Source: a virus
Taxonomy: Duplodnaviria; Caudoviricetes
Direction: 5' to 3' (one strand)
Virus record (IMG/VR): IMGVR_UViG_3300021426_000086
Location: 1-64,000 of that record
Length of the DNA: 64,000 bases
This document shows, one piece after another, positions 12,690-61,324 of this stretch (positions are counted from its first letter, which is position 1; each line of letters starts with the position of its first letter). The notes beneath the pieces were generated by a model. It did no database searches. It was not told where the DNA came from and saw only the letters and a program-made list of their open reading frames with translations. Made by a program: the position numbers and the translations under genes.

Positions 12690-13241
12690 TTCAGCAGCGG
12701 GCTTCTCTTCGTTGGCGGGCTCGGGGTAGAGGGCTTTGTAGGCGCTCCAGTCGATAGCGTCCTTGCGAGCCCATCCTGCCTGCTGGCATGCCAGTACATG
12801 CTGGGTGGTAGCGGTGCAGATGGCGTGCATTTCCTCGGCGTTAGCAAACTCCTCGAACACGGCTGTGCCGTCGGCCAGCTCGCCTACCTTATACTTCACG
12901 GGGAAGGTGAGCGCATCGGCATTCTGGTGCATGGCGTGGAAGTCGCTCTGGTTCTCCTTAGAGAGCCATACGTTAACATCGGTACCAGCCTGTGCGCCGT
13001 GCAGCACGGTGTAAGCAAAGCCACGGGTAATCTGCTCTACGGTGTCGGCATTGATGTCGGCCTCGATGGCAGCCTTGATTACTGCAAAGGTAATCTGCTG
13101 CACTTGCTTGGTGGGCAGATAAACCTCGAACCACTCGTAGTTGTCCTTCTTGATCTTAACAAGTCCGTAACCAACTACCACGCGCGTACCTTCGTCGCGC
13201 ACCAGAGCAAAGTCGCTCTTAACTCCATTCATTTTGTTCAT
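12687..13241 (-). CDS. DUF4376-like tail-fibre-associated protein
   Basis: C-terminal LTFPVKYKVG...AGWARKDAIDWSAY pattern typical of this family in Bacteroidales phages. Confidence 0.55.
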   Translation of the reverse strand: MNKMNGVKSDFALVRDEGTRVVVGYGLVKIKKDNYEWFEVYLPTKQVQQITFAVIKAAIEADINADTVEQITRGFAYTVLHGAQAGTDVNVWLSKENQSDFHAMHQNADALTFPVKYKVGELADGTAVFEEFANAEEMHAICTATTQHVLACQQAGWARKDAIDWSAYKALYPEPANEEKPAAE

Positions 13242-14439
13242 AATGCTTGTTATTTAAAGGTGAATAATTATATAATGTAAACTTAGTAACGTCGCGGTCA
13301 AAATAGCCTATCTGCAGCAGCTTGGGTATAAGAAACAGGCGGCAGCGGATGTTGAACGAGTCGTAATGGCTCAGCACGCCCAGAAACGAGTTGACTGACA
13401 GGAAGGCGTGTATAGGGTCGGCGGTATTGATTTTGTTCACATTGTATATCATGCGGTCGATAGATGCGTTGCTGATATAACTGTGGCCATTCTTTACAAA
13501 TGCGCCCAGAAACTCCACACCGCTGTAGGCATCAAGTGTGTGCAGCTTATTGCGGTTAAGCTCAAGCCCCAGGCGCTCGGCCAGAAACTGCTCGGCAGGG
13601 TCAATCAGGCTGCGCAGCCACTCCTTGCTGGTGCCTACCACAAACGAGTCATCTACATATCGGCCAAAGTGCTTGCAGCCCATCTCGCGCTTCATATACT
13701 GATCGAACTCATTAAGATACACATTCGAGAATAGCTGCGATGTAAGATTGCCTATGGGCAGGCCGCACCCGTCCATGGTGTAGAACAGGCTCTTGGCGTG
13801 GTCAAGCCCCTCCCAGTCGTCAACACTGCCTGCTATGCGGCAGTTGCCACGAGGGTCGAGCAGTGCTATCTCGCGTGTTAGCCACAGCAGGAAGTCGATA
13901 TCAAGCTCATCGGCCCATGTGCAGCCTATGCCGCGCCCGCGTCGTGGTGCCATCTTCAGCAGGTCGGCACAGGCTATATCGGCCAGTCGCTGTCGGTCGA
14001 TGTGCATAAAGTAGCCGCGCTTATCCAGCTTGAGCACCCAGCAGGGCTGCTGATAGCCACAACTGGCACGGCGTATGTGCATCTTCAGTCGCTCTATGCC
14101 GTAGTGCGTGCCTCGGCCTGGTATGCAGCTGTAGCAGTCCTCTATAAACAGGCGCTCGTACAGCTGGTGGGTGTAGTTGTAATACAGGTGGTGAAGCACG
14201 CGATCAGGGAATTGCGCTGCAAAAACCTCACGCTTTTTTGGGCGCTCTACTATAAAACAGCTTGAGGGTTCTGGCTTATACCGTCGGGCCATCAAGTCGT
14301 CGGCCATCTTATTCAGATTCTCGTCAAGATTCTGCTCGTATTTTACTACATACGGCTTACTGGCCTTGTGGCGCTTGGCGCTCACAAAAGCAGCATGAAG
14401 GTCGAGCAACAAATCCTCGCGAGTTAAATGGTATGCCAT
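13219..14439 (-). CDS. DGR reverse transcriptase
   Basis: Starts MAYHLTREDLL; GLPIGNLTSQLFSNVYLNEFD and GRYVDD motifs; adjacent to TR. Confidence 0.95.
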   Translation of the reverse strand: MAYHLTREDLLLDLHAAFVSAKRHKASKPYVVKYEQNLDENLNKMADDLMARRYKPEPSSCFIVERPKKREVFAAQFPDRVLHHLYYNYTHQLYERLFIEDCYSCIPGRGTHYGIERLKMHIRRASCGYQQPCWVLKLDKRGYFMHIDRQRLADIACADLLKMAPRRGRGIGCTWADELDIDFLLWLTREIALLDPRGNCRIAGSVDDWEGLDHAKSLFYTMDGCGLPIGNLTSQLFSNVYLNEFDQYMKREMGCKHFGRYVDDSFVVGTSKEWLRSLIDPAEQFLAERLGLELNRNKLHTLDAYSGVEFLGAFVKNGHSYISNASIDRMIYNVNKINTADPIHAFLSVNSFLGVLSHYDSFNIRCRLFLIPKLLQIGYFDRDVTKFTLYNYSPLNNKHYEQNEWS

Positions 14440-14502
14440 ATAGTCCTTTTTTGTTCTAAACAACTCTAATAACATCTGAATTATAAATAACATCAATAAA
14501 AG

Positions 14503-14690
14503 CTGAACCGGGCGAACAGCGAAACCGTTGAAGCGGTTGTTGTTGTTCTGCGGATTGACACCACCCGAATTGAAGTTCAGGTTGCGACCGTTCGTGGCGG
14601 AATTGAGCGACGACGACCAGTAGTTGCCGTTGGAGCCACGATTGTTCCACGACGTGCCATTACCGTTACCGGCGCACGGGAAGAACAAGA
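14503..14690 (-). repeat. DGR template repeat (TR)
   Basis: 188 bp matching 15645-15832 with 14 mismatches, all at minus-strand adenines of this copy; rich in AAC codons. Confidence 0.95.
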
Positions 14691-14915
14691 ACACGCCCGG
14701 AGAAACATCTCGTTACCACCTTGCTAACGTAAGGCCAGAACAGGCACCACCTGCGGGTAGCGTGGCTGAGCCAGTCTATGTTTTTCTGGGGGATTTTTCG
14801 CCAGCCCTAACCAGAGAGCAGCGGACGGATAACCTATGTAATTATCTACTGTCAAAAATAAAATCAGATATGTAAAAGAGCGCCCGTCGAAGCGGAGGTT
14901 TGTTTTTATATTTTG

Positions 14916-15497
14916 TTAAAGCAGTCCTGCCACTTGCTGTTTCAGGCTACTTATAAATGCTATATTCTCTTCAGGAGTGCGGTCCTCAAGTGGGTAGGCT
15001 ATCACCTCGCTCACTATCGAGAACAGTCCGCTACGGGCCAGTGCCGATTGCTGGCTTGGTCCGCTTTTTATGTCCCTTTTACTTTGGTTGTTGGTAGTAA
15101 CCTCGGTAGGCAGAGCCAAACGCCATGTTTCGTAGTCGCCCTGAATTTTATCAGGCGTATCTTCGAGAGGAATCTGGGCGCCGTCGATAACTATCAGCAA
15201 ATCGTCGTTATCAAGCACCTGCTTAGAAGCGTAGCTGGGTATGAACTTTGATAGCGACTCAAGCGGGAAACCAAGCTGCACAAAGTCGTAGCTCTTCTTG
15301 GCATAATGCTTTACCTGTAGTAGTTTAGAGTCGCCACGTTGCTTCTGGAACTCCTCGGTACACAGATAGTGCTTTATCAGGTAGGCACTTATCTCGTAAG
15401 CACGATAAAACTTTCCCTGCTTGTGCAGGATTACCTTTCGCCAGTCGTAATCGCCCTCGCGCTGCTGCTCAAAAGCTATTGCTTCTTTCTCCAGCAT
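14916..15497 (-). CDS. DGR accessory protein, MutS N-terminal-like (MSL type)
   Basis: ILHKQGKFYRAYEISAYL resembles the MutS domain I motif; lies between target gene and TR. Confidence 0.6.
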   Translation of the reverse strand: MLEKEAIAFEQQREGDYDWRKVILHKQGKFYRAYEISAYLIKHYLCTEEFQKQRGDSKLLQVKHYAKKSYDFVQLGFPLESLSKFIPSYASKQVLDNDDLLIVIDGAQIPLEDTPDKIQGDYETWRLALPTEVTTNNQSKRDIKSGPSQQSALARSGLFSIVSEVIAYPLEDRTPEENIAFISSLKQQVAGLL

Positions 15498-15556
15498 AAT
15501 TATATTTTTTTAATTAGTTAATAATCTTGTTAATTTTTAATTTCCATTTCCCTGCC

Positions 15557-15595
15557 CGTGCTGCGCCGCCCTTGGGGGCGGCTGTATGCAGCACG
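15557..15595. promoter_or_regulatory. GC-rich hairpin downstream of VR, candidate DGR homing cruciform
   Basis: CGTGCTGC-GCCGCCC-TTGG-GGGCGGC-tgtat-GCAGCACG nested inverted repeat ~50 bp past the target stop codon. Confidence 0.65.
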
Positions 15596-15641
15596 CGCAT
15601 TGAAATGGGTTTTGTTGTTTGTTCGGTTTGACAGTAAATAA

Positions 15642-16721
15642 TTACTGAACCGGGCGAACAGCGAAACCGCTGAAGCGGCTGTTGTTGTCCTGCGGATAGA
15701 CACCACCCGAATTGAAGTACAGGCCGCGACCGTACGTGGCGGAATAGAGCGACGACGACCAGTAGCGGCCGTAGGAGCCACGATTGTACCACGACGCGCC
15801 ATTACCGTTACCGGCGCACGGGAAGAACAAGATAGCGTTATTAATCTTACTCTTCAAGCGAATACCAACGATACTATTCATCGTAATCAGCTTGTTAGTG
15901 GTAGCTGCAGCTATCACGTTACCATCGGCATCAATATAGTCGATATTGTTGAACAACTCGGCAAACTCGCCCGTAGTAGGCATACGCCAAGGAGCGCCAA
16001 GGTTAGCGCGAGCAGCATCGAACGATGGCGAGATGTTGCCTGTAAGGGCTGCGCCTGGAGTGTCGGCATAAGGACCATCGTTGGCTGTACCCCAGTTGTA
16101 GTCGAACGCACTTGCGCTGATGGGGTTGTGCATCTGGGTGTTACCCCACGAGCAGAACGAGCACTCGTACTGATACTCGCTGGCGGCAAAGCCGTTGGCC
16201 TGAGTGATATCAATATTCTTCTTAGCCCAGAGCACGCCGCTTGGCAAGCCCATATCTACATAAAGATCGCTGGGGCTGCCACCACCTTCCAAGCCCATCA
16301 AGCCCACAATGTTGTAGGCCGAGCCATCGTAGCACATAATGGCTGTCATACCAGCCTTGATAACGCCTGGCTGCAGATTGCTGCCGTTAATCTTTATGTT
16401 CTTAGCACCTGTGCTGCTGATGTTAAGTGTGGCATCGGCCACGTTAACGGCATTGGCAAAGCGGATGGCCACAAAGCCATTCTTCAGCAGAATAAAGTCG
16501 GAGATAGAGGCCGTTTTAGCGGCAGTGGTAGCAGCTGTGCTACAGGTGGCCTGTCCACTACCAGCGGTGGCAAGGTCCTGTATAAGCTGGCGTGCCAGAT
16601 ACTTGCCGGCAGGTGTACCGTCGGCGTTGAACAACATTACAGTCTGTGCCGCACCTGGTGCAGCCTGACTCAGCCCGGCCTGTATAGCCTTGAGCATGTT
16701 TAAACCTGTAATCGTTTCCAT
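15642..16721 (-). CDS. DGR target: tail fibre/receptor-binding protein with a C-terminal CLec-type domain
   Basis: Fibre-like N-terminus (TCSTAATTAAKT...), YVDMGLPSGVLWAKKNI, ends YWSSS...GFAVRPVQ containing VR. Confidence 0.85.
   Translation of the reverse strand: METITGLNMLKAIQAGLSQAAPGAAQTVMLFNADGTPAGKYLARQLIQDLATAGSGQATCSTAATTAAKTASISDFILLKNGFVAIRFANAVNVADATLNISSTGAKNIKINGSNLQPGVIKAGMTAIMCYDGSAYNIVGLMGLEGGGSPSDLYVDMGLPSGVLWAKKNIDITQANGFAASEYQYECSFCSWGNTQMHNPISASAFDYNWGTANDGPYADTPGAALTGNISPSFDAARANLGAPWRMPTTGEFAELFNNIDYIDADGNVIAAATTNKLITMNSIVGIRLKSKINNAILFFPCAGNGNGASWYNRGSYGRYWSSSLYSATYGRGLYFNSGGVYPQDNNSRFSGFAVRPVQ
15645..15832 (-). repeat. DGR variable repeat (VR)
   Basis: Encodes the C-terminus of 15642-16721; 12 codons differ from TR. 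Confidence 0.95.
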
Positions 16722-31726: not shown

Positions 31727-32296
31727 TTAGAACGGCAGGTCGTCGGTGTCCTGCTGTGGAGGGAAGGGCTGCTCGGCGGTAGGCTGCCAACCTTGGGCAC
31801 CGCTGGCGGCGGTAGCGTTGGCGGGGGCTGCCTGCTGACCGCCACCCTGGCGCTGATGACAGTACATAGAGCCCAAACGACAGCGCACGGCATCGTACAT
31901 GGCATTGCGCAGGTCGGTGTTGTGCTCGGGATCCTCCAAGTCGGGGCCAGTCCACTCGGGATGCTCTGACAGCAGGCGCTTGCGTGCTGCCTCTAAAGCA
32001 CGCTGGCGAAACTCAGGCGAGAACGATACCTCCATCTGGTGCGATGGGGGAGTGTAGCCCGTCATATCGTCGCCACTCTGCTGCTTGCGCTGTATGCAAG
32101 CCTGACGGAACTTATCGTTGGTCTCGGCCATAAACACACGCGCCGAGGCGTACTTGCCATCCTGAGTAATCTGGATGTCGTTGTAAGGTACGGGTATGCA
32201 CACCCAAGCCATGTCGGGGTGCTTCTCATCGAGATGGGTAAACACTCGGGCTCCTTTAAAGCCCAAAAGATTCAATAATCCACTAAAATTTGCCAT
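31727..32296 (-). CDS. Possible single-stranded DNA-binding protein
   Basis: Q/G/A/P-rich linker ending in acidic DTDDLPF, inside the replication module. Confidence 0.5.
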   Translation of the reverse strand: MANFSGLLNLLGFKGARVFTHLDEKHPDMAWVCIPVPYNDIQITQDGKYASARVFMAETNDKFRQACIQRKQQSGDDMTGYTPPSHQMEVSFSPEFRQRALEAARKRLLSEHPEWTGPDLEDPEHNTDLRNAMYDAVRCRLGSMYCHQRQGGGQQAAPANATAASGAQGWQPTAEQPFPPQQDTDDLPF

Positions 32297-32320
32297 AGGT
32301 TATACATTAAACATTAAACA

Positions 32321-33583
32321 TTAAACATTGACCAGCATTGGCATAACCAGGAGAGTTTTGCCTTGCAGTTTCTGACTCTCGTTGCGCAGCAGGATAGGGT
32401 GGCTCTGGTCGCTAAAGTACAGGCATACGCTATCTTCATCCAGCATATCGAGCATGTCGATAACGTTGCTGAGCTTCATACCAATCTTAAAGCCTTGGGG
32501 CAGGAAGGCGTCGGTCTCCTGTACGGCTACGCGCTCTGAGCCTTGGCGACCTTCTACGTCGTTGTTGGCTTCTACGATAAACGATTGACCGTCGCTACGC
32601 ATAATGGCCAGGTTGGTAGTGCCATCACTGCTGAGCTGCACGCGGAGCAGAGCCATCTTCAGACTCTCACGACTGATCTGCACCTTGTAAGGATTGTCTT
32701 TTGGAATCACGCTGTCGTAGTTGGGATAGTTGCCCTCAATCTGAGCCATATTCAGCGTAGCACCGCCCATCTGCAGCATCAGTCGGCGGGTGTCGGCGGT
32801 TACGGTAAGCGTGCCGCTGCCACCAAAGGCGGCTATGAGCGATGCCATGGCACTCTTAGGTACCAGCAGTTTGGCGCTGCCATCGGCTGCAAAGCCCACG
32901 TGCTTCATGTAGCCTGGGCACTCTATCACCTGCTTATACAGGCGGTGGCCATCGCTGGCGGCTATCACCACGCTATCTACCGAGCAATCCATGCACACAG
33001 CACCCATTACGGGGCGCAACTCGTCAGCAGCCACACAGGCGCGGCTCTGGATAACGGGACCAAGCAGATCACTGGCACCAATCTGGAAGCGGCATACAGC
33101 ATCGGTGCCCTCGCGTGGAGCCTCGGGGGTTACGATGGCGGGTGCATCGGGAAACTCCAGTGCATCCTGATAAGGCACATCCATCGCGCCATCCTGATAG
33201 TCGATAGTGCAGGTGCGCACATCGCCCTTCTGTTTTAGGATTACAGTGCAGCGGCGACTGGCGGGCAGCAGGCTGAATGCCTCGCGCAGTGGGGCATAGG
33301 GCAGGCACACATCAGCAAAGGGCTCCTTGGGGTCCTCTTTCAACAGGTGTACGCAGGGCTGGGTGTCGGCGTTGCCGTCGGCATCGGTAGTGGTGGTGGC
33401 GCAATCCACCGTGAGCCACAATTCACTGTTACTGCCTGTAAGGCGGAACACTTCGGCCTGACGATCGAATGATAACTTAACGCACTGCAGTATAGGCAAT
33501 GGTGTTTTTGGGCTAATAGCACCTTTGAGCTGGTTTAGCACATGACGGAAGCCAGCAACGTCGATTGTAATTTCTGTTTGCAT
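32321..33583 (-). CDS. dnaN: DNA polymerase III beta sliding-clamp homolog
   Basis: KTPLPILQCVKL, DELRPVMGAV, AASDGHRL, IEGNYPNYDSVIP and C-terminal LVMPM motifs. Confidence 0.9.
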   Translation of the reverse strand: MQTEITIDVAGFRHVLNQLKGAISPKTPLPILQCVKLSFDRQAEVFRLTGSNSELWLTVDCATTTTDADGNADTQPCVHLLKEDPKEPFADVCLPYAPLREAFSLLPASRRCTVILKQKGDVRTCTIDYQDGAMDVPYQDALEFPDAPAIVTPEAPREGTDAVCRFQIGASDLLGPVIQSRACVAADELRPVMGAVCMDCSVDSVVIAASDGHRLYKQVIECPGYMKHVGFAADGSAKLLVPKSAMASLIAAFGGSGTLTVTADTRRLMLQMGGATLNMAQIEGNYPNYDSVIPKDNPYKVQISRESLKMALLRVQLSSDGTTNLAIMRSDGQSFIVEANNDVEGRQGSERVAVQETDAFLPQGFKIGMKLSNVIDMLDMLDEDSVCLYFSDQSHPILLRNESQKLQGKTLLVMPMLVNV

Positions 33584-55514: not shown

Positions 55515-56297
55515 TCATGTGCCGTAGGATTTGAGGGTCTCGATATCTTCCTGCGAGATGTATTTCTCGGCGGTGTCGAGGTTGTGCTCCAGGGCAAACT
55601 TTCCCATTCGGTTGATGTAGTCTGGGTCGTTCAGCTTGCGTGTCAGCACGTCAACGGCCAGGTTCACTTGTTTGTCGTCGTTCAGCACCACCTGGCCCTC
55701 GCGCTTGTCGTCGCTCTGCACCCAGATGTCGCACAGCTGGCTCCATGTGTGCAGCACGCGATCGTAGCGCCCATCTTGAAACAGTGCGGTGTAGTCCACG
55801 CCGTATTTCTCTTTCATGCTGCGCATCACCTCGTCAAACTCGCCCACGGCCAGTGTGCAGCAGATGCGTGCGCACTCCAGTCGGGCTTTCAGGTCGGTTC
55901 GGGCGTCGCGATGGTAGTCCATCACCTGTTTGATGGTCATAAAGATGTGAAATATGTGCTGGCGATACTCATGCTCCACGCTGTCGAGATAGTCGAGCCA
56001 CAGTTTCAGTCGGTCGCCAAAGTTCTTGTTGTGCATCGCCTCGTACTCCTCCTGCCGGCGTTCGGTTTCGCGGCACAGCTGCTTGGTGCGCTGTTTGTAA
56101 AGTCCGGCGGCCTTGATGGCGTCGATGGCGTCGCTCACGGCCAGTCGTGCCACCTCGTTGGCCACGCCCACCAGCATGTTCACACGGCTGTTGGTTTCGT
56201 CCCACCCCTGCAGATACTGTTTCGGGGTCAGCTTCGGGTTCATAGCGTGCAGCAGCGCATTGTGGCGCTTCTGATATAATAGTGGATTTATTGGCAT
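55515..56297 (-). CDS. Hypothetical protein
   Basis: 260 aa helical ORF. Confidence 0.55.
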   Translation of the reverse strand: MPINPLLYQKRHNALLHAMNPKLTPKQYLQGWDETNSRVNMLVGVANEVARLAVSDAIDAIKAAGLYKQRTKQLCRETERRQEEYEAMHNKNFGDRLKLWLDYLDSVEHEYRQHIFHIFMTIKQVMDYHRDARTDLKARLECARICCTLAVGEFDEVMRSMKEKYGVDYTALFQDGRYDRVLHTWSQLCDIWVQSDDKREGQVVLNDDKQVNLAVDVLTRKLNDPDYINRMGKFALEHNLDTAEKYISQEDIETLKSYGT

Positions 56298-56320
56298 AGT
56301 TCTACATTAAACATTAAAGA

Positions 56321-56821
56321 TTAAACATTAATTGCGCGGGCGCGGCGGGTTTCCCATGTTTTCTTCGAGCGTTCGCTCAGTTCCTTTTTGTGTGTCATGT
56401 TCCATCGGTGCAGTCCGGCTATGCGTTTCTCGCGCATCTCGGGTGTCTCCTTGTGGCCTTTTTTAAACTCGCCTGCGGGGTTGGCTCGCACGCCCTTCTT
56501 AAATCGGCCTGGGTTGCCAGCCTTGCTGGCTGCTGCCCGTGCCATTATGCGGCGCTCCTCATACATATCGTGCAGCCATGTGGGGTCCTTCTGCAGTCCC
56601 AGCTGCCGTGCCTTGCGTATCATTGTGCGCATGCTCACGCCCAGCCATCCTGCCAGTTCGTCGTTCAGTGTGGTGGCAAAGTTTCGCTTCAGGTAGTCCA
56701 GCATCTGCGTGCTCCAGAATATGCGCGTGCTGTAGCCGTGGTGCTCCATAACCCGCCCGTATTTAGGGTGCAGGTAAATGCCCTCCTTGGCCTTAACATA
56801 ACCATTGTCTTTTTTCTTCAT
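56321..56821 (-). CDS. Basic DNA-binding protein (HTH plus NUMOD3-like repeats)
   Basis: LAGWLGVSMRTMIRKARQLGL; NPGRFKKG...GEFKKGHK. Confidence 0.5.
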   Translation of the reverse strand: MKKKDNGYVKAKEGIYLHPKYGRVMEHHGYSTRIFWSTQMLDYLKRNFATTLNDELAGWLGVSMRTMIRKARQLGLQKDPTWLHDMYEERRIMARAAASKAGNPGRFKKGVRANPAGEFKKGHKETPEMREKRIAGLHRWNMTHKKELSERSKKTWETRRARAINV

Positions 56822-57015: not shown

Positions 57016-57269
57016 TTATAAATCGTGTTCGATGAATACACATAGGCTGGTGGAGCCTGTCATAATAGTGCCTGCGATGTGACCGCGATCAGTTACGCGG
57101 GCTCTACGGGTTATGCTTGAGGGGTAGTCGATGTCGAACACGCCCTGCGGGTCGCACTCGATGTAGCCTTGTTCGGTGGCTTGGCGGATTCGGAGCACGA
57201 TTTGCCCCCCCTCGCAGCGATTTCAAGGAACGGTCGGGATGATGTTTTATATATCATTGATTCACTCAT
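57016..57269 (-). other. MTase-associated cassette 13, out of frame (G7; G8 restores 84 aa)
   Basis: MSESMIYKTSSRPFLEIAARGG|QIVLRIRQATEQGYIECDPQGVFDIDYPSSITRRARV...FIEHDL; tract 57205-57211. Confidence 0.75.
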
Positions 57270-57460
57270 ATTCTATTAGTATTACCGTCTTTGGATAGTG
57301 AGCCAAGGTGAGGATATCTTCTGGCAGCTGCATGCCGTCGTAACGAGTATTGAGTGTGCAAACACATCCTCCAGTGGTAACATTGACTGGCAGGCAGTAC
57401 CCCCCCCCTAACAGGTTTGGCCGTAGCCTGATTGGTGCAGTGCAGTTTAATCGTATTCAT
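57262..57460 (-). other. Cassette 12, out of frame (G9; G8 restores 65 aa)
   Basis: MNTIKLHCTNQATAKPVRGG|YCLPVNVTTGGCVCTLNTRYDGMQLPEDILTLAHYPKTVILIEYE; tract 57400-57408. Confidence 0.75.
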
Positions 57461-57584
57461 ACTCTATCATTACCATTTGGTTGCGGTCGCTCATCGGGTT
57501 GGCACATACGCTGAAAGCATAGGGCTTGATGCTGAGCGATGGTTTGTCGCGGTCTCCTACTAATTGAATCATCCTATATCTCAT
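57447..57584 (-). CDS. Cassette 11 (45 aa, no tract; paralog of cassette 5)
   Basis: MRYRMIQLVGDRDKPSLSIKPYAFSVCANPMSDRNQMVMIEYEYD. Confidence 0.75.
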   Translation of the reverse strand: MRYRMIQLVGDRDKPSLSIKPYAFSVCANPMSDRNQMVMIEYEYD

Positions 57585-57717
57585 ACTCTATCATAACCTT
57601 TGGGATGTTGCCAGAACCTTCGCCGCTCTTGACGGCACGGCAAATGTCGTTGACGTAATACACATTCTGCGTGAACCACCACGACAGCCTCCCTATTCGC
57701 TTCTTAATCGTATTCAT
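57574..57717 (-). CDS. Cassette 10 (47 aa, no tract)
   Basis: MNTIKKRIGRLSWWFTQNVYYVNDICRAVKSGEGSGNIPKVMIEYEI. Confidence 0.75.
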   Translation of the reverse strand: MNTIKKRIGRLSWWFTQNVYYVNDICRAVKSGEGSGNIPKVMIEYEI

Positions 57718-57853
57718 ACTCAAATAAAATCGAAGTCATGCTGGCTTGCCCCCCCCTCAATAGGGTGGCAGCATAAAACTTGTAGCAGCCGGCAAGGATG
57801 GCCTTGGCGGTGCCGTCGCAGTTACTGTTGATGTATTGTATCTTAATCGTCAT
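57704..57853 (-). CDS. Cassette 9 (49 aa, G8 in frame)
   Basis: MTIKIQYINSNCDGTAKAILAGCYKFYAATLLRGGQASMTSILFEYEYD; tract 57749-57756. Confidence 0.75.
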   Translation of the reverse strand: MTIKIQYINSNCDGTAKAILAGCYKFYAATLLRGGQASMTSILFEYEYD

Positions 57854-57985
57854 ACTCTACAATAATCTTTGGAAGGCCGAAGTCGGTAGTTCCGATGCAA
57901 GGACACCAAGTACCCCCCCAACTATATCGACTACAGCGGCATGGTGCTGCATCGAACCTAATATAGTAATTACCTTATACGTCAT
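57843..57985 (-). other. Cassette 8, out of frame (G7; G8 restores 47 aa)
   Basis: MTYKVITILGSMQHHAAVVDIVGG|GTWCPCIGTTDFGLPKIIVEYDD; tract 57913-57919. Confidence 0.75.
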
Positions 57986-58162
57986 ATTCTATCAGTGCTA
58001 CAGTCATGGGATAGTGTGCCAGTGAGATGATGTTGGTTGGGCCAACGGCATCGTAACGGGTAGTGAGTGTGGCAGCGCAACTGTCGCCAGTGGTGTTGAT
58101 GGCTCTGATTTGCCCCCCCTAATGCGCTTAATCTTCCCAATATTCGTTGTTCTATATTTCAT
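57975..58162 (-). other. Cassette 7, out of frame (G7; G8 restores 62 aa)
   Basis: MKYRTTNIGKIKRIRGG|QIRAINTTGDSCAATLTTRYDAVGPTNIISLAHYPMTVALIEYDV; tract 58113-58119. Confidence 0.75.
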
Positions 58163-58333
58163 ACTCTATCAATATATACGGTGTGGTGTTATACATACCT
58201 GTGGCTGAATCTTTCCCAATACCCCCCCACATAGCGAGGTTATGGTGTTGCACGTCTGTTTTAGGTGATATTTTGAAACATCACCCTTTCCGCTGCCATG
58301 CCGCGTCCATCCTATAAATTTATATTTCAGCAT
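58152..58333 (-). other. Cassette 6, out of frame (G7; G8 restores 60 aa)
   Basis: MLKYKFIGWTRHGSGKGDVSKYHLKQTCNTITSLCGG|GIGKDSATGMYNTTPYILIEYEI; tract 58222-58228. Confidence 0.75.
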
Positions 58334-58457
58334 ACTCTATCAATATCATTTGGTTGCGGTCGCTCATCGGGTTAGCACATACGCTAAAAGCATAGGGCTT
58401 AATGCTTAGCGATGGGGCATCGCGGTCGCCTACCAGTTGTATCATGCTATATATCAT
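58320..58457 (-). CDS. Cassette 5 (45 aa, no tract)
   Basis: MIYSMIQLVGDRDAPSLSIKPYAFSVCANPMSDRNQMILIEYAEI. Confidence 0.75.
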   Translation of the reverse strand: MIYSMIQLVGDRDAPSLSIKPYAFSVCANPMSDRNQMILIEYAEI

Positions 58458-58602
58458 ACTCAACCAAAAAAGATGGTTCCCGATTACCCCCCCCCATACA
58501 GGTTAGCGCGGGGCAAACACCTTGCAGGCTCCATACACCATAGGCAAAGCCCGTGTTGTACTTAGGGTTCTTGCTATTGCCGAGATATATTACTCTATTC
58601 AT
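58447..58602 (-). CDS. Cassette 4 (51 aa, G9 in frame)
   Basis: MNRVIYLGNSKNPKYNTGFAYGVWSLQGVCPALTCMGGGNREPSFLVEYDI; tract 58487-58495. Confidence 0.75.
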   Translation of the reverse strand: MNRVIYLGNSKNPKYNTGFAYGVWSLQGVCPALTCMGGGNREPSFLVEYDI

Positions 58603-58888
58603 AACTCTCTCTCTATCCATACCAGATTATCTTTTTGTACTGATGTGATGGTGTTGGTGGCTTGCGACGACCCGAGTTCGATAACTTGGTGGAATGGTCG
58701 CTCGCCGTGCGGACCACGGAAGCCTACATCCTCTACATCGCGGTTCACCATTGCGCATACTCTCACATTACCCCCCCATATTCAGGGCAGCGGTTGCGCA
58801 GATAGGTTTCTGCACCGCGCCCTCGGCTGGCTGAAATCCTTACGGGTTTCATACCCTCACTTGGTTCTGTATCTTTAATCAGTATCAT
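58599..58888 (-). other. Cassette 3, out of frame (G7; G8 restores 96 aa)
   Basis: MILIKDTEPSEGMKPVRISASRGRG...CPEYGG|GNVRVCAMVNR...ATNTITSVQKDNLVWIEREL; tract 58771-58777. Confidence 0.75.
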
Positions 58889-59039
58889 ATTCTATCAATA
58901 CGCTTACATCGAATTTCGTTGCTTTCAGACTGCGAGATATGTCGGGCAGCGGTGGATGCACGAAGTCGGCTCGCACAAAGGCATAGATGCCGTAGTACCG
59001 CCTTGGGCATTGCCCCCCCCTCAATCCTTTATCACTCAT
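58875..59039 (-). CDS. Cassette 2 (54 aa, G8 in frame)
   Basis: MSDKGLRGGQCPRRYYGIYAFVRADFVHPPLPDISRSLKATKFDVSVLIEYDTD; tract 59013-59020. Confidence 0.75.
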   Translation of the reverse strand: MSDKGLRGGQCPRRYYGIYAFVRADFVHPPLPDISRSLKATKFDVSVLIEYDTD

Positions 59040-59240
59040 ATTCAGTAATCAATAAATTATCTTTCTGTACGCCGGTGATGGTGTTGCTGCAACCATCGGT
59101 GGCAGGGTAGTAGTTGCGGTCGGCAAAGTGGCAGTGCCCCCCCTGTCGCCGTAGGTGCGGCGCACTGCGCGGGCGTGCTCGGTTCGCACACCCCGCAGCA
59201 CGGAACTACTCACCACTTCTGGCTTGTGCAATTTCTTCAT
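59032..59240 (-). other. Cassette 1, out of frame (G7; G8 restores 69 aa)
   Basis: MKKLHKPEVVSSSVLRGVRTEHARAVRRTYGDRGG|HCHFADRNYYPATDGCSNTITGVQKDNLLITEYE; tract 59137-59143. Confidence 0.75.
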
Positions 59241-60525
59241 CGCTCAGCTTGTGATCTGTTACCACGTAGTGAATCTGTGCAGCCTCGGTGGCCTCATTCA
59301 CGGTCAGGAACTTAATCACCGAGTCGGGCTTCAGGAAAAAGCGCTCATCCACATTATCCTCCAGCACATCGGCTATGCACTTATCCAGTTCAAAGGGTCG
59401 CGGAAACTCATACTGTGTGCCATTCAGCAGGTCGGCACGTATGCTCACCATATACACTCGCTCGCGGTTCTGCGGCACGCCGTAGTGCTTGGCGTTCAGT
59501 ATGCCTGCCACGGTTTTGCGGTCGCGCTTGTCGGTGCCCCAAGGGATAGGGAACTGGGGTGCCAGAAAGTTCACGTAGCCGTGGCTCTCAAGCAGTTTGC
59601 ACCACTCTTTAAAATCGGGCATATTCACGCTGTTAATCAGCGCACGTACATTCTCCTGCAACAGCACCTTTGGGCGCATGTGGCGCACGGCTTCCTCGGT
59701 GCTCCACAGCACGGCACTGCGGGTGCCGCTGCCTTTCTTGATGCCCTCGCGCTTGCCGGCCTGACTGATGCTTTGGCAGGGGGTCGAATATGTCAGCAGG
59801 TCGATCTCGGCATCTTCAAGGTTGCTCCAGTCGGCCTTGGTCATATCGCCTCGGTTCAAGTCTTTGTACTGCGGAAACAGCAGGTTGTGGGCCACCACGG
59901 CTGGCTGCTCGTCCAGAGGGCGTGTGCTCTCGGGGTCGAACTCGCTCCATGCCATCAGCTTCCATCTAAAATCCTTATATCGCTGCTGCAGCATATCCAT
60001 GGCTATGGCTTGGCTATCGTAGCCGCTACATAATGTAACCAGTTTCAGTGGTTGTTTCTTCCAGTCGCGCGATAGTCGGAATTGTGGCAGTGCAAACAGG
60101 TCGGTTTGTTCGTTCGGCAGTCGGCGACCGGTGGGGTACATCAGTTCCTCGTAGATATACATCAGCACGTCGCACACTATCGAATTTCCTGCCAGCTTGT
60201 AGTGTGATGAGTTGGAGATAATCTGCACATCGCCGTAGCGCTGCTCTTGACTTGCAGCGATGATGGCCTGATAGGCTTGATCGTAATTCTGTCGTAATAG
60301 TGCGTTTTCCTCGGTATCAGCCTCCTGCTCCTCGGCTGTGATGCGCTGCAGGTCGGCATCGTCGGTTGGCATATCGTCGTCAGATGGTCGGTTCTCAAGG
60401 CTCTCTATGGCCTCGCGGTAGGCTTCGTCAACCTCTCGGCGTGTGGCACCGGGTTCCAGTCCGAATACGGTCAATTGGGCATCTACGCCCGTCCAGGCCA
60501 TATACGGTTTCTTTTCTGTTTTCAT
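59206..60525 (-). CDS. C5-cytosine DNA methyltransferase core, permuted (motifs X, I-VIII)
   Basis: YKLAGNSIV (X) precedes LVTLCSGYDSQ (I), WSEFD (II), TYSTPCQSIS (IV), LQENV (VI) and GVPQNRERVY (VIII); ATG at 60525 overlaps the upstream TGA. Confidence 0.9.
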   Translation of the reverse strand: MKTEKKPYMAWTGVDAQLTVFGLEPGATRREVDEAYREAIESLENRPSDDDMPTDDADLQRITAEEQEADTEENALLRQNYDQAYQAIIAASQEQRYGDVQIISNSSHYKLAGNSIVCDVLMYIYEELMYPTGRRLPNEQTDLFALPQFRLSRDWKKQPLKLVTLCSGYDSQAIAMDMLQQRYKDFRWKLMAWSEFDPESTRPLDEQPAVVAHNLLFPQYKDLNRGDMTKADWSNLEDAEIDLLTYSTPCQSISQAGKREGIKKGSGTRSAVLWSTEEAVRHMRPKVLLQENVRALINSVNMPDFKEWCKLLESHGYVNFLAPQFPIPWGTDKRDRKTVAGILNAKHYGVPQNRERVYMVSIRADLLNGTQYEFPRPFELDKCIADVLEDNVDERFFLKPDSVIKFLTVNEATEAAQIHYVVTDHKLSDEEIAQARSGE

Positions 60526-60872
60526 AAGTGTTGCAATCTGTGGGGGGGGGGTACTCCCATCAGACTGTAGCACTCTACAGGTGTAAGTTTTCGGATGTCG
60601 AAGTAGCGCACAGGGTGCGTTGGGTCCTTCTTGCCTTGCAAGTCGGGATGCCCGTCGGGATAAATTTTTGCAATCATAAATTTTCTGAGTTTATTTATAG
60701 TTCTTTCTTCGCATACGAAATAGTGGTTACGCGATGATATGCCTGCAAGTATGGTTATCGCTATCTGGCGATGCGCCTGCTGGTTGTAGGTGTCGAGCAT
60801 TTCGCCATGGTAGTCTGGCTCCCAATACCCCCCCTGAATCATTGCGTTTAGCCGCGAGTTATTATAGTTCAT
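60522..60872 (-). CDS. N-terminal MTase fragment: TRD-like module plus motif IX
   Basis: MNYNNSRLNAMIQGGYW...IRKLTPVECYSLMGVPPP; minus-strand C10 (plus-strand G10, 60542-60551) shifts it out of frame with the core; C11 or C8 would fuse them; in-frame G7 at 60828-60834. Confidence 0.85.
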   Translation of the reverse strand: MNYNNSRLNAMIQGGYWEPDYHGEMLDTYNQQAHRQIAITILAGISSRNHYFVCEERTINKLRKFMIAKIYPDGHPDLQGKKDPTHPVRYFDIRKLTPVECYSLMGVPPPHRLQHL

Positions 60873-61010
60873 ATTCAATCAGTATCTTAGGTTTGTCGGT
60901 ATCGTGCCCATTACCCCCCCTGCAAGGCAAAGGGCAGGCCCTTTGGGGCTTACCACTATGCCGTTTTGGCTGGGGCTGTACTGACCCAGAATAATAGGTT
61001 TATCGCTCAT
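60862..61010 (-). other. Cassette 0, out of frame (G7; G8 restores 49 aa)
   Basis: MSDKPIILGQYSPSQNGIVVSPKGPALCLAGG|GNGHDTDKPKILIEYEL; tract 60914-60920. Confidence 0.75.
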
Positions 61011-61324
61011 ACCTCGGGATGATTACTCTGCCTTGCACTCCATTCCAGGTTGGTGTAGTGATTATTGTCGCGGTTGCCATCCTTGTGCAGCACGTTAGGT
61101 AGGTTGTCGGGGTTGGGAATAAATGCCTCGGCCACCAGGCGGTGTACCTTAAACGTCTTACCCTGCAGACGCACGCGGCGGTAGCCTTTGCCATTGAAAG
61201 TGGCAATGCGGTGCCACGTCTTTGGGTCGCTCTCTGGGTTGGTGGTGCTCAGCACCTGACCATCATCAGTAACATAATAAATGGTTTTACCCTTCTGGTA
61301 AAATTTCTGAATTGTTGCTCTCAT
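61007..61324 (-). CDS. HNH endonuclease (NUMOD4/HNH_3 type)
   Basis: KVHRLVAEAFIPNPDNLPNVLHKDGNRDNNHYTNLEW. Confidence 0.9.
   Translation of the reverse strand: MRATIQKFYQKGKTIYYVTDDGQVLSTTNPESDPKTWHRIATFNGKGYRRVRLQGKTFKVHRLVAEAFIPNPDNLPNVLHKDGNRDNNHYTNLEWSARQSNHPEV

Follow-up and report, generated by a model that had tools for sequence, protein, structure and literature searches.

We examined an array of short open reading frames (ORFs) that surrounds a DNA cytosine-C5 methyltransferase gene in a virus of the class Caudoviricetes (IMG/VR record IMGVR_UViG_3300021426_000086). The window, by which we mean the whole stretch of DNA analysed here, comprises 64 kb of a 75,365-base virus record. 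The array lies entirely on the minus strand, with 13 cassettes downstream of the methyltransferase core (57016-59240) and one upstream (60862-61010). Every cassette closes with a tail of two hydrophobic residues, Glu and then Tyr or His, and its stop codon overlaps or abuts the next ATG. Runs of seven to nine G (G7-G9) occur in 11 of the 14 cassettes, and cassettes 5, 10 and 11 have no run. Cassettes 2, 4 and 9 are in frame, seven others need +1 (the upstream cassette and cassettes 1, 3, 6, 7, 8 and 13) and cassette 12 needs -1. A preliminary description of this DNA had reported 14 coupled mini-ORFs, these same phases and no G or C run of seven or more elsewhere. We re-derived the positions of the mini-ORFs and found them as described, re-scoring of the phases agreed exactly, and the confinement of the runs held across the 64 kb. 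The counts of 11 cassette runs and 14 free mini-ORFs also stood, but a fifteenth module, fused to the core, and two further runs had been overlooked, so that the locus has 13 runs in total. The twelfth run is an in-frame G7 (60828-60834) within the fused module, a target recognition domain (TRD)-type sequence of family F26 at the core N-terminus (60678-60872) that is fused or free in relatives. The thirteenth, C10 on the coding strand (60542-60551), is out of frame and breaks the core just past motif IX; C8 or C11 would be in frame.

The upstream cassette (family F3, HhaI-like; 60862-61010) has its G7 at 60914-60920, and natural in-frame copies exist, for example at L088:1934-2083 (L numbers denote the other loci compared). 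Downstream of the core lie cassette 1 (F1; 59032-59240; G7 at 59137-59143), which is in frame in L080, L081 and others, cassette 2 (F1b; 58875-59039; G8 at 59013-59020) and cassette 3 (F4; 58599-58888; G7 at 58771-58777), whose run site differs from that of most relatives. They are followed by cassette 4 (F20; 58447-58602; G9 at 58487-58495) and by cassette 5 (58320-58445; no run, constitutive), a paralogue of cassette 11 (57447-57572; no run) over 105 of 126 nucleotides. Cassettes 6 (F2; 58152-58333; G7 at 58222-58228), 7 (F0a; 57975-58162; G7 at 58113-58119), 8 (F10; 57843-57985; G7 at 57913-57919) and 9 (F21; 57704-57853; G8 at 57749-57756) precede cassette 10 (57574-57717; no run, constitutive), which was not found in other loci. 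Beyond cassette 11, the array ends with cassettes 12 (F0b; 57262-57460; G9 at 57400-57408) and 13 (F5; 57016-57269; G7 at 57205-57211), the latter with a PHROG methyltransferase match.

The core itself (59206-60677, minus strand) matches PF00145 (E 1.5e-36) and carries the catalytic Pro-Cys of motif IV as well as motifs VI and VIII of C5 methyltransferases. A Foldseek search with its predicted structure showed a fold resembling M.MpeI and M.HhaI. These results uphold the earlier assignment to the DNA C5 methyltransferases, and from the sequence we infer that the core makes 5-methylcytosine in DNA. The assignment had missed, however, that the core is circularly permuted and has a C-run switch of its own. 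Its motifs run in the order IX, a long acidic insert, X, I, IV, VI and VIII, followed by ~80 residues, thus placing IX-X ahead of I-VIII as in M.BssHII; because of this permutation, the TRD can sit outside the core. An intact copy in L078 (490 aa) is 92% identical, and many relatives' cores (484-500 aa) begin at a Met just ahead of motif IX and hence have no TRD. The TRD is on the same chain when a module of family F26 or F2 is fused in frame. The predicted fold of such a naturally fused module-core protein had low confidence over the module (residues 1-93) and was not used. Among annotated phage records, we found none covering the permuted core. The insert between motifs IX and X is acidic and helical, spans ~110 aa (window ~60200-60500, minus strand) and varies in length among relatives; it is possibly a DNA mimic or an interaction arm.

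In the C10 state of the window, a 116-aa chain (60522-60872) terminates 5 or 6 residues past motif IX, with a stop codon that overlaps the ATG of the following chain (439 aa; 59206-60525). This state may represent either an inactive core or a two-chain form like that of M.EcoHK31I. Relatives have C7 or C8 at this position, and at another motif-IX site they have C7-C10; all three phases were seen, suggesting that the C runs have arisen repeatedly. Runs of C8-C12 or G8, within or close to motif IX and the modules, also occur in more distant phage methylases (L021:6040 and L020).

The 13 runs are all the G or C runs of at least seven in the 64 kb, and by position their falling within 4 kb has p ~2e-16. 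In the other genes of the window GGG is the rarest Gly codon (37 of 861) and Gly-Gly pairs (n=50) never extend beyond G4, which indicates that the runs are not a by-product of glycine content; tract-poor relatives use mixed codons for the same glycines. Homopolymers are error-prone, and the frameshifts could be assembly errors or reflect the decay of a once-fused gene. Assembly error, however, cannot place 13 long runs within 4 kb while leaving the rest of the window free of them, and separate assemblies repeat identical lengths (L145/L146/L151, L149/L152, L153/L154 and L138-L142). This recurrence argues against random assembly noise and suggests that the switching rate varies between lineages. 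Decay is contradicted by the real stops and starts within the cassettes, so that repair of the runs yields no single long ORF, and by purifying selection, which is equal on OFF and ON copies: post-tract ratios of nonsynonymous to synonymous polymorphism (pN/pS) were 0.22 between OFF copies and 0.24 between ON copies. The OFF cassettes are therefore not pseudogenes, and the proposal that selection keeps them was borne out. Error or decay is thus largely refuted, and we hold it to be the least probable of the alternatives considered here.

Comparison of cassette content across related phages showed that the layout is common to ~43 loci, with ~25 cassette families that vary in number and order. 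Of the 345 runs scored, those in frame number 124 (36%); a correction of +1 would be needed in 157 and of -1 in 64. In most of the large families all three phases occur, and in-frame copies are found in nature. The hypermutability expected of the tracts was evident in near-clonal assemblies, which differ only at the runs: pairs without a single-nucleotide polymorphism (SNP) differ at 2-5 runs, for example 3 of 8 (L007/L105) and 2 of 8 (L085/L086), and nine assemblies of one strain (0-3 SNPs over ~5 kb) are up to 5 run indels apart, with no other indel. Over 28 close, non-independent pairs, 117 of 214 G/C runs differed, compared with 13 of 104 A/T runs. Coding homopolymers that vary in length among near-clonal genomes and shift the frame are the hallmark of a simple sequence repeat (SSR) contingency locus. 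Taken from these sequences, the system is very probably phase-variable.

The same numbers bear on another use of the runs, as tuners of dose, in which ribosomal or transcriptional slippage on G7 would give a low level of product from the cassettes that need +1, so that all specificities are expressed in graded amounts. In keeping with this, G7 in the needs-+1 state is the commonest (157 of 345, against 64 needing -1), and cassettes in this state are precisely those whose frame a -1 slip on GGG codons would recover. L010, with nearly all of its runs at G6, can also be cited for it. However, programmed recoding keeps a fixed phase, whereas most large families show all three phases, which change between zero-SNP assemblies, and deletion bias alone could explain the excess of G7. 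Dose tuning could, in addition, coexist with switching at the DNA level. As a replacement for such switching we consider it unlikely. In L010 (3143-7017) the G6 runs are out of frame, representing either a locked-off lineage or an assembly effect.

We also asked how a switch in one cassette would affect the next. Wrong-frame stops lie at most 30 nt from the next start in 72% and 64% of cases for the two frames, compared with 57-62% and 49-52% in synonymous recodings; the test is approximate, since a few rows took a frame running into the next cassette. This is suggestive of a non-polar design, in which the tail has stops in both wrong frames beside the next ATG.

The nature of the cassettes became apparent from fused forms in other proteins. 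Modules of the F3, F20 and F5 types stand in tandem directly before motifs IX-X in the proteins P0196 and P0172, and an F5 module stands in that position in P0209-P0211. The final P0196 module matches the F3 profile (probability 82%) and aligns with the TRD of M.HhaI, the T-L dipeptide region included; F20, the family of cassette 4, matches the fused TRD of P0196 with E 2.8e-8. In all, families F3, F20, F5, F0, F1, F1b, F4, F11, F12 and F18 match modules fused before motif IX. Because these families occur in this position elsewhere, the mini-ORFs are very probably TRD modules, as judged from homology, which agrees with the earlier proposal that they resemble the variable region of methyltransferases. 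The more specific proposal, that they are modules with a T(L/I) dipeptide, holds for the families with fused matches but was not shown for F10 or for cassettes 5, 10 and 11, to which the fused-module homology does not extend; this comparison was made via the fused relatives and M.HhaI rather than with SPR or Phi3T sequences. In Dulem virus 40 (PP511379.1), a 373-aa chain annotated as a C5 methylase contains about nine cassette profiles in tandem before motif IX. Where they are not fused in this way, nearly all F3 relatives are free-standing proteins of 33-111 aa. The F3 profile gave only chance protease matches against PDB sequences. The large proteins in the F3 profile search, P0196 and P0172 excepted, were WD40, BNR, Kelch or VWA repeat proteins and were rejected as noise. 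The Dulem virus 40 locus (L137:4052-5992) encodes a naturally split C5 methylase, with one chain for motifs I-VIII and another for many modules and IX-X, has no G runs and is a fused counterpart of the array.

These forms can be arranged as a series, read in either direction, of fused tandem modules, free mini-ORFs beside a permuted core with 0-1 runs (L011-L014, L022 and L109-L119) and loci in which nearly every cassette has a run. Another possibility is that only the core-fused module works and that the free cassettes are a silent reservoir, moved into the fused position by recombination or deletion. The fused family indeed differs by phage (F26 here, F2 in L011-L014 and L109-L119, F17 in L082) and cassette order varies. 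In L083 (1405-1644), moreover, a chimeric cassette passes at the G run from the front half of cassette 1 into the back half of cassette 2, so that half-modules may also be reshuffled by recombination or deletion at the runs. But many cores (~490 aa) start at the internal Met without a fused module, and the free cassettes keep a coupled start, a docking tail and a switch of their own, all needless in a silent store. Together with the modelled binding in trans, this makes a mere reservoir improbable, to about the same degree as dose tuning.

To model this binding, an in-frame core (L078) and an F3 cassette (L088) were predicted as a complex. The complex score was 0.84 and the best of 3 controls scored 0.00, in line with the earlier suggestion that the peptides bind the core; of 80 solved complexes 58 attain the mark used, as do 2 of 110 mismatched pairs, and these counts are rough here because we used our own alignments. 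The modelling runs agreed in at least 71% of contacts, with a partner pLDDT (predicted local distance difference test) of at least 71. In the model, the tail strand of the cassette (residues 43-46) pairs with core residues 26-29, the strand opening motif IX, which would explain why every cassette keeps the same tail. The middle of the cassette (21-26) touches core residues 402-404 (motif VIII) and 434-436, the position of a TRD in cis. Since the pieces are of known fold, the score may stem from their likeness to solved enzymes such as M.HhaI, and the model argues for a fit of core and cassette rather than for binding in the cell. With one TRD slot per core, as modelled, cassettes that are ON would add specificities side by side instead of combining into new motifs. 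The 2^11 states of the preliminary description are therefore no more than a ceiling on the number of genotypes.

Together, these results suggest the following mechanism. Circular permutation would have opened a phage C5 methyltransferase at its variable region and left a catalytic core without a TRD, and the translationally coupled array would supply TRDs as separate peptides of 41-96 aa. A peptide would enter the single TRD slot of the core, its C-terminal hydrophobic-Glu-Tyr strand pairing with the strand that starts motif IX and its middle packing against motif VIII, like the cis TRD in M.HhaI. Each core-peptide pair would have one target, and the cassettes, if docked as modelled, would confer distinct specificities that add up. 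Slipped-strand mispairing at the G run of each cassette would toggle that cassette, mostly without polarity on account of the stops in its tail, and the C run past motif IX would turn the core off or into its two-chain form. A phage population may thereby carry many methylation patterns.

The virus record encodes an integrase, a head protease, a tail fibre, a helicase and a reverse transcriptase; a 75%-identical core occurs in a Prevotellaceae genome assembly (L134), and close relatives come from bovine and rumen-type metagenomes. We infer a temperate phage of rumen Bacteroidales, the host probably being Prevotella-type rumen bacteria. Across the window, several palindromes are avoided: CTAG is absent against 224 expected, GATC occurs 156 times against 619 and CCGG 100 times against 366, and several six-base sites are absent. 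Many of the avoided palindromes contain C, and the avoidance is consistent with restriction pressure. In Bacteroidales, 639 methylation motifs and ~1000 prophage methyltransferases have been described (PMC10333322). The most likely purpose is survival of varied Bacteroidales restriction systems while methyl-directed defences are avoided, and anti-restriction bet-hedging, by analogy to the T2 agt contingency locus, appears to be the best account of it. With about two-thirds of the modules kept off, fewer peptides would compete for the slot and the phage would be less exposed to methyl-directed defences.

The same mechanism could instead regulate host or prophage genes in the lysogen, like a phasevarion, or the peptides could act on host methyltransferases. 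The integrase marks the phage as temperate, and bacterial phase-variable methyltransferases are reported to control regulons. Yet the locus sits among replication-region genes (ParA-like, Rep-like and HNH), the strong avoidance of restriction sites points to restriction pressure, and the peptides always accompany their own TRD-less core. We therefore regard these other purposes as quite improbable, less so only than error or decay.

Other features of the window include an HNH/NUMOD4 endonuclease gene (61007-61324, minus strand) whose stop overlaps the ATG of the first cassette and which also lies upstream in L144 and L153. A diversity-generating retroelement (13219-16721, minus strand) has its reverse transcriptase at 13219-14493, a template repeat at 14495-14690 and a variable repeat at 15637-15832, located at the 3' end of the ORF at 15642-16721. 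The two repeats are 91% identical over 196 nt, with 14 of 17 mismatches at adenines. The phage has two diversifying systems, the retroelement and the cassette array. A 40-nt direct repeat (90%; 32290-32329 and 56291-56329) lies upstream of two genes and is possibly a shared regulatory element. A scan of promoters and terminators gave chance-level matches only.

Each component of the proposed system has known parallels. Multispecific C5 enzymes of Bacillus phages carry several modular TRDs, fixed in tandem between motifs VIII and IX of one chain with one catalytic core. They share with the present system a phage-encoded C5 enzyme and modular TRDs on one core, and fused tandem forms of the present modules exist; here, in contrast, a permuted core is surrounded by TRDs that are separate genes, ORFs with their own starts and stops, most of which carry a homopolymer switch. 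The system works like a multispecific phage methyltransferase but lacks the one-chain feature of that family, whose members include M.SPRI, M.Phi3TI, M.Rho11sI, M.H2I and M.phiBssHII (as named in titles in PMC8936443). Natural circularly permuted C5 methyltransferases (M.BssHII, M.Alw26I, M2.Eco31I, M.Esp3I and M2.BsaI) have IX-X before I-VIII and a new N-terminus in the variable region (PMC5944983). The present core shares this order, but those enzymes have the TRD on the chain, whereas here a TRD is absent from many cores, which have TRD mini-genes on their flanks. Two-chain enzymes are known as well (M.AquI and M.EcoHK31I), as is fragment complementation of M.BspRI, M.BsuRI, M.HhaI and M.SssI (PMC3404938), and for C5 enzymes divided near the TRD, complementation is well documented (PMC3404938, PMC5944983). 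The small chain of M.EcoHK31I carries motif IX (PMC3404938), as does the small chain in the C10 state of the window, and in the known cases the pieces form an active enzyme. Those cases, however, are limited to a single fixed partner and a single specificity, and in none of them is the partner a lone TRD or one of an interchangeable panel; here one core has 14-15 candidate partners, in a set that differs between phages.

Switching, too, has precedents. Phage contingency loci include poly-G receptor-binding genes in Fletchervirus and T2 agt, which trades between restriction systems (bioRxiv 10.1101/2025.10.21.683753). These loci and SSR phase-variable bacterial methyltransferases share homopolymer slippage and reversible frameshifts with the present array, but they turn single genes on or off, whereas the 13 runs here would select modules of one enzyme within one operon. 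In type I restriction-modification systems, HsdS switches by hsdS inversion or recombination (PMC7672463, PMC7394358), the shufflons having HsdM and HsdS subunits, inverted repeats and a recombinase, and specificity likewise lies on a separate subunit that is exchanged stochastically. HsdS nevertheless belongs to another enzyme class and fold, serves host defence and changes by DNA rearrangement, one allele at a time; the present locus has a C5 core, all cassettes on one strand and, by self-comparison, no inverted repeat of at least 40 nt. The literature searched, mostly papers outside subscription, held no report of TRD mini-genes that are free and individually switched, and the preliminary description likewise knew of none. 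Phage enzymes with several TRDs, poly-G switches in phages, two-chain enzymes and circular permutation all have precedents, and it is their combination that appears to be new. Gene callers overlook most of the cassette ORFs, which may be why the system had gone unreported.

In weighing this interpretation, several observations count against it. Run lengths were taken from assemblies rather than from reads within a population, and in the shorter-run lineage L138-L142 the tracts have the same lengths in all five assemblies, which show up to 9 SNPs. The excess of wrong-frame stops is modest, and the sequences are related. Scans of single cassettes against Pfam and PHROG were almost empty, and most families have no Pfam, PHROG or PDB match of their own. 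Motif I of the core is atypical (Cys-Ser-Gly-Tyr-Asp), yet invariant in 51 homologues, and the docking model covers one cassette family, F3, in copies from relatives. The system is nonetheless real and under selection. On balance, we consider it probable that the locus encodes a phase-variable multispecific anti-restriction C5 methylase with detachable specificity peptides that act additively through one slot. With somewhat less confidence we favour the wider proposal of a C5 chassis with specificity peptides that plug in in trans, each with its own non-polar homopolymer switch, reshuffled between phages (~25 families) and giving heritable combinatorial methylomes and a natural library of swappable DNA-recognition peptides of 45-90 aa.

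If true, this would represent an architecture new to sequence-specific DNA methylation, with specificity residing on free exchangeable peptides instead of a fixed domain. Engineered swaps of TRD loops usually lose activity (PMC2790894), and a natural panel of ~25 peptides on one core would make the recognition code of C5 methyltransferases directly testable. It could also yield programmable methylation tools, for example for moving DNA past restriction in gut and rumen bacteria. For the phages themselves, the system would offer a concrete mechanism of bet-hedging in the face of diverse Bacteroidales restriction.

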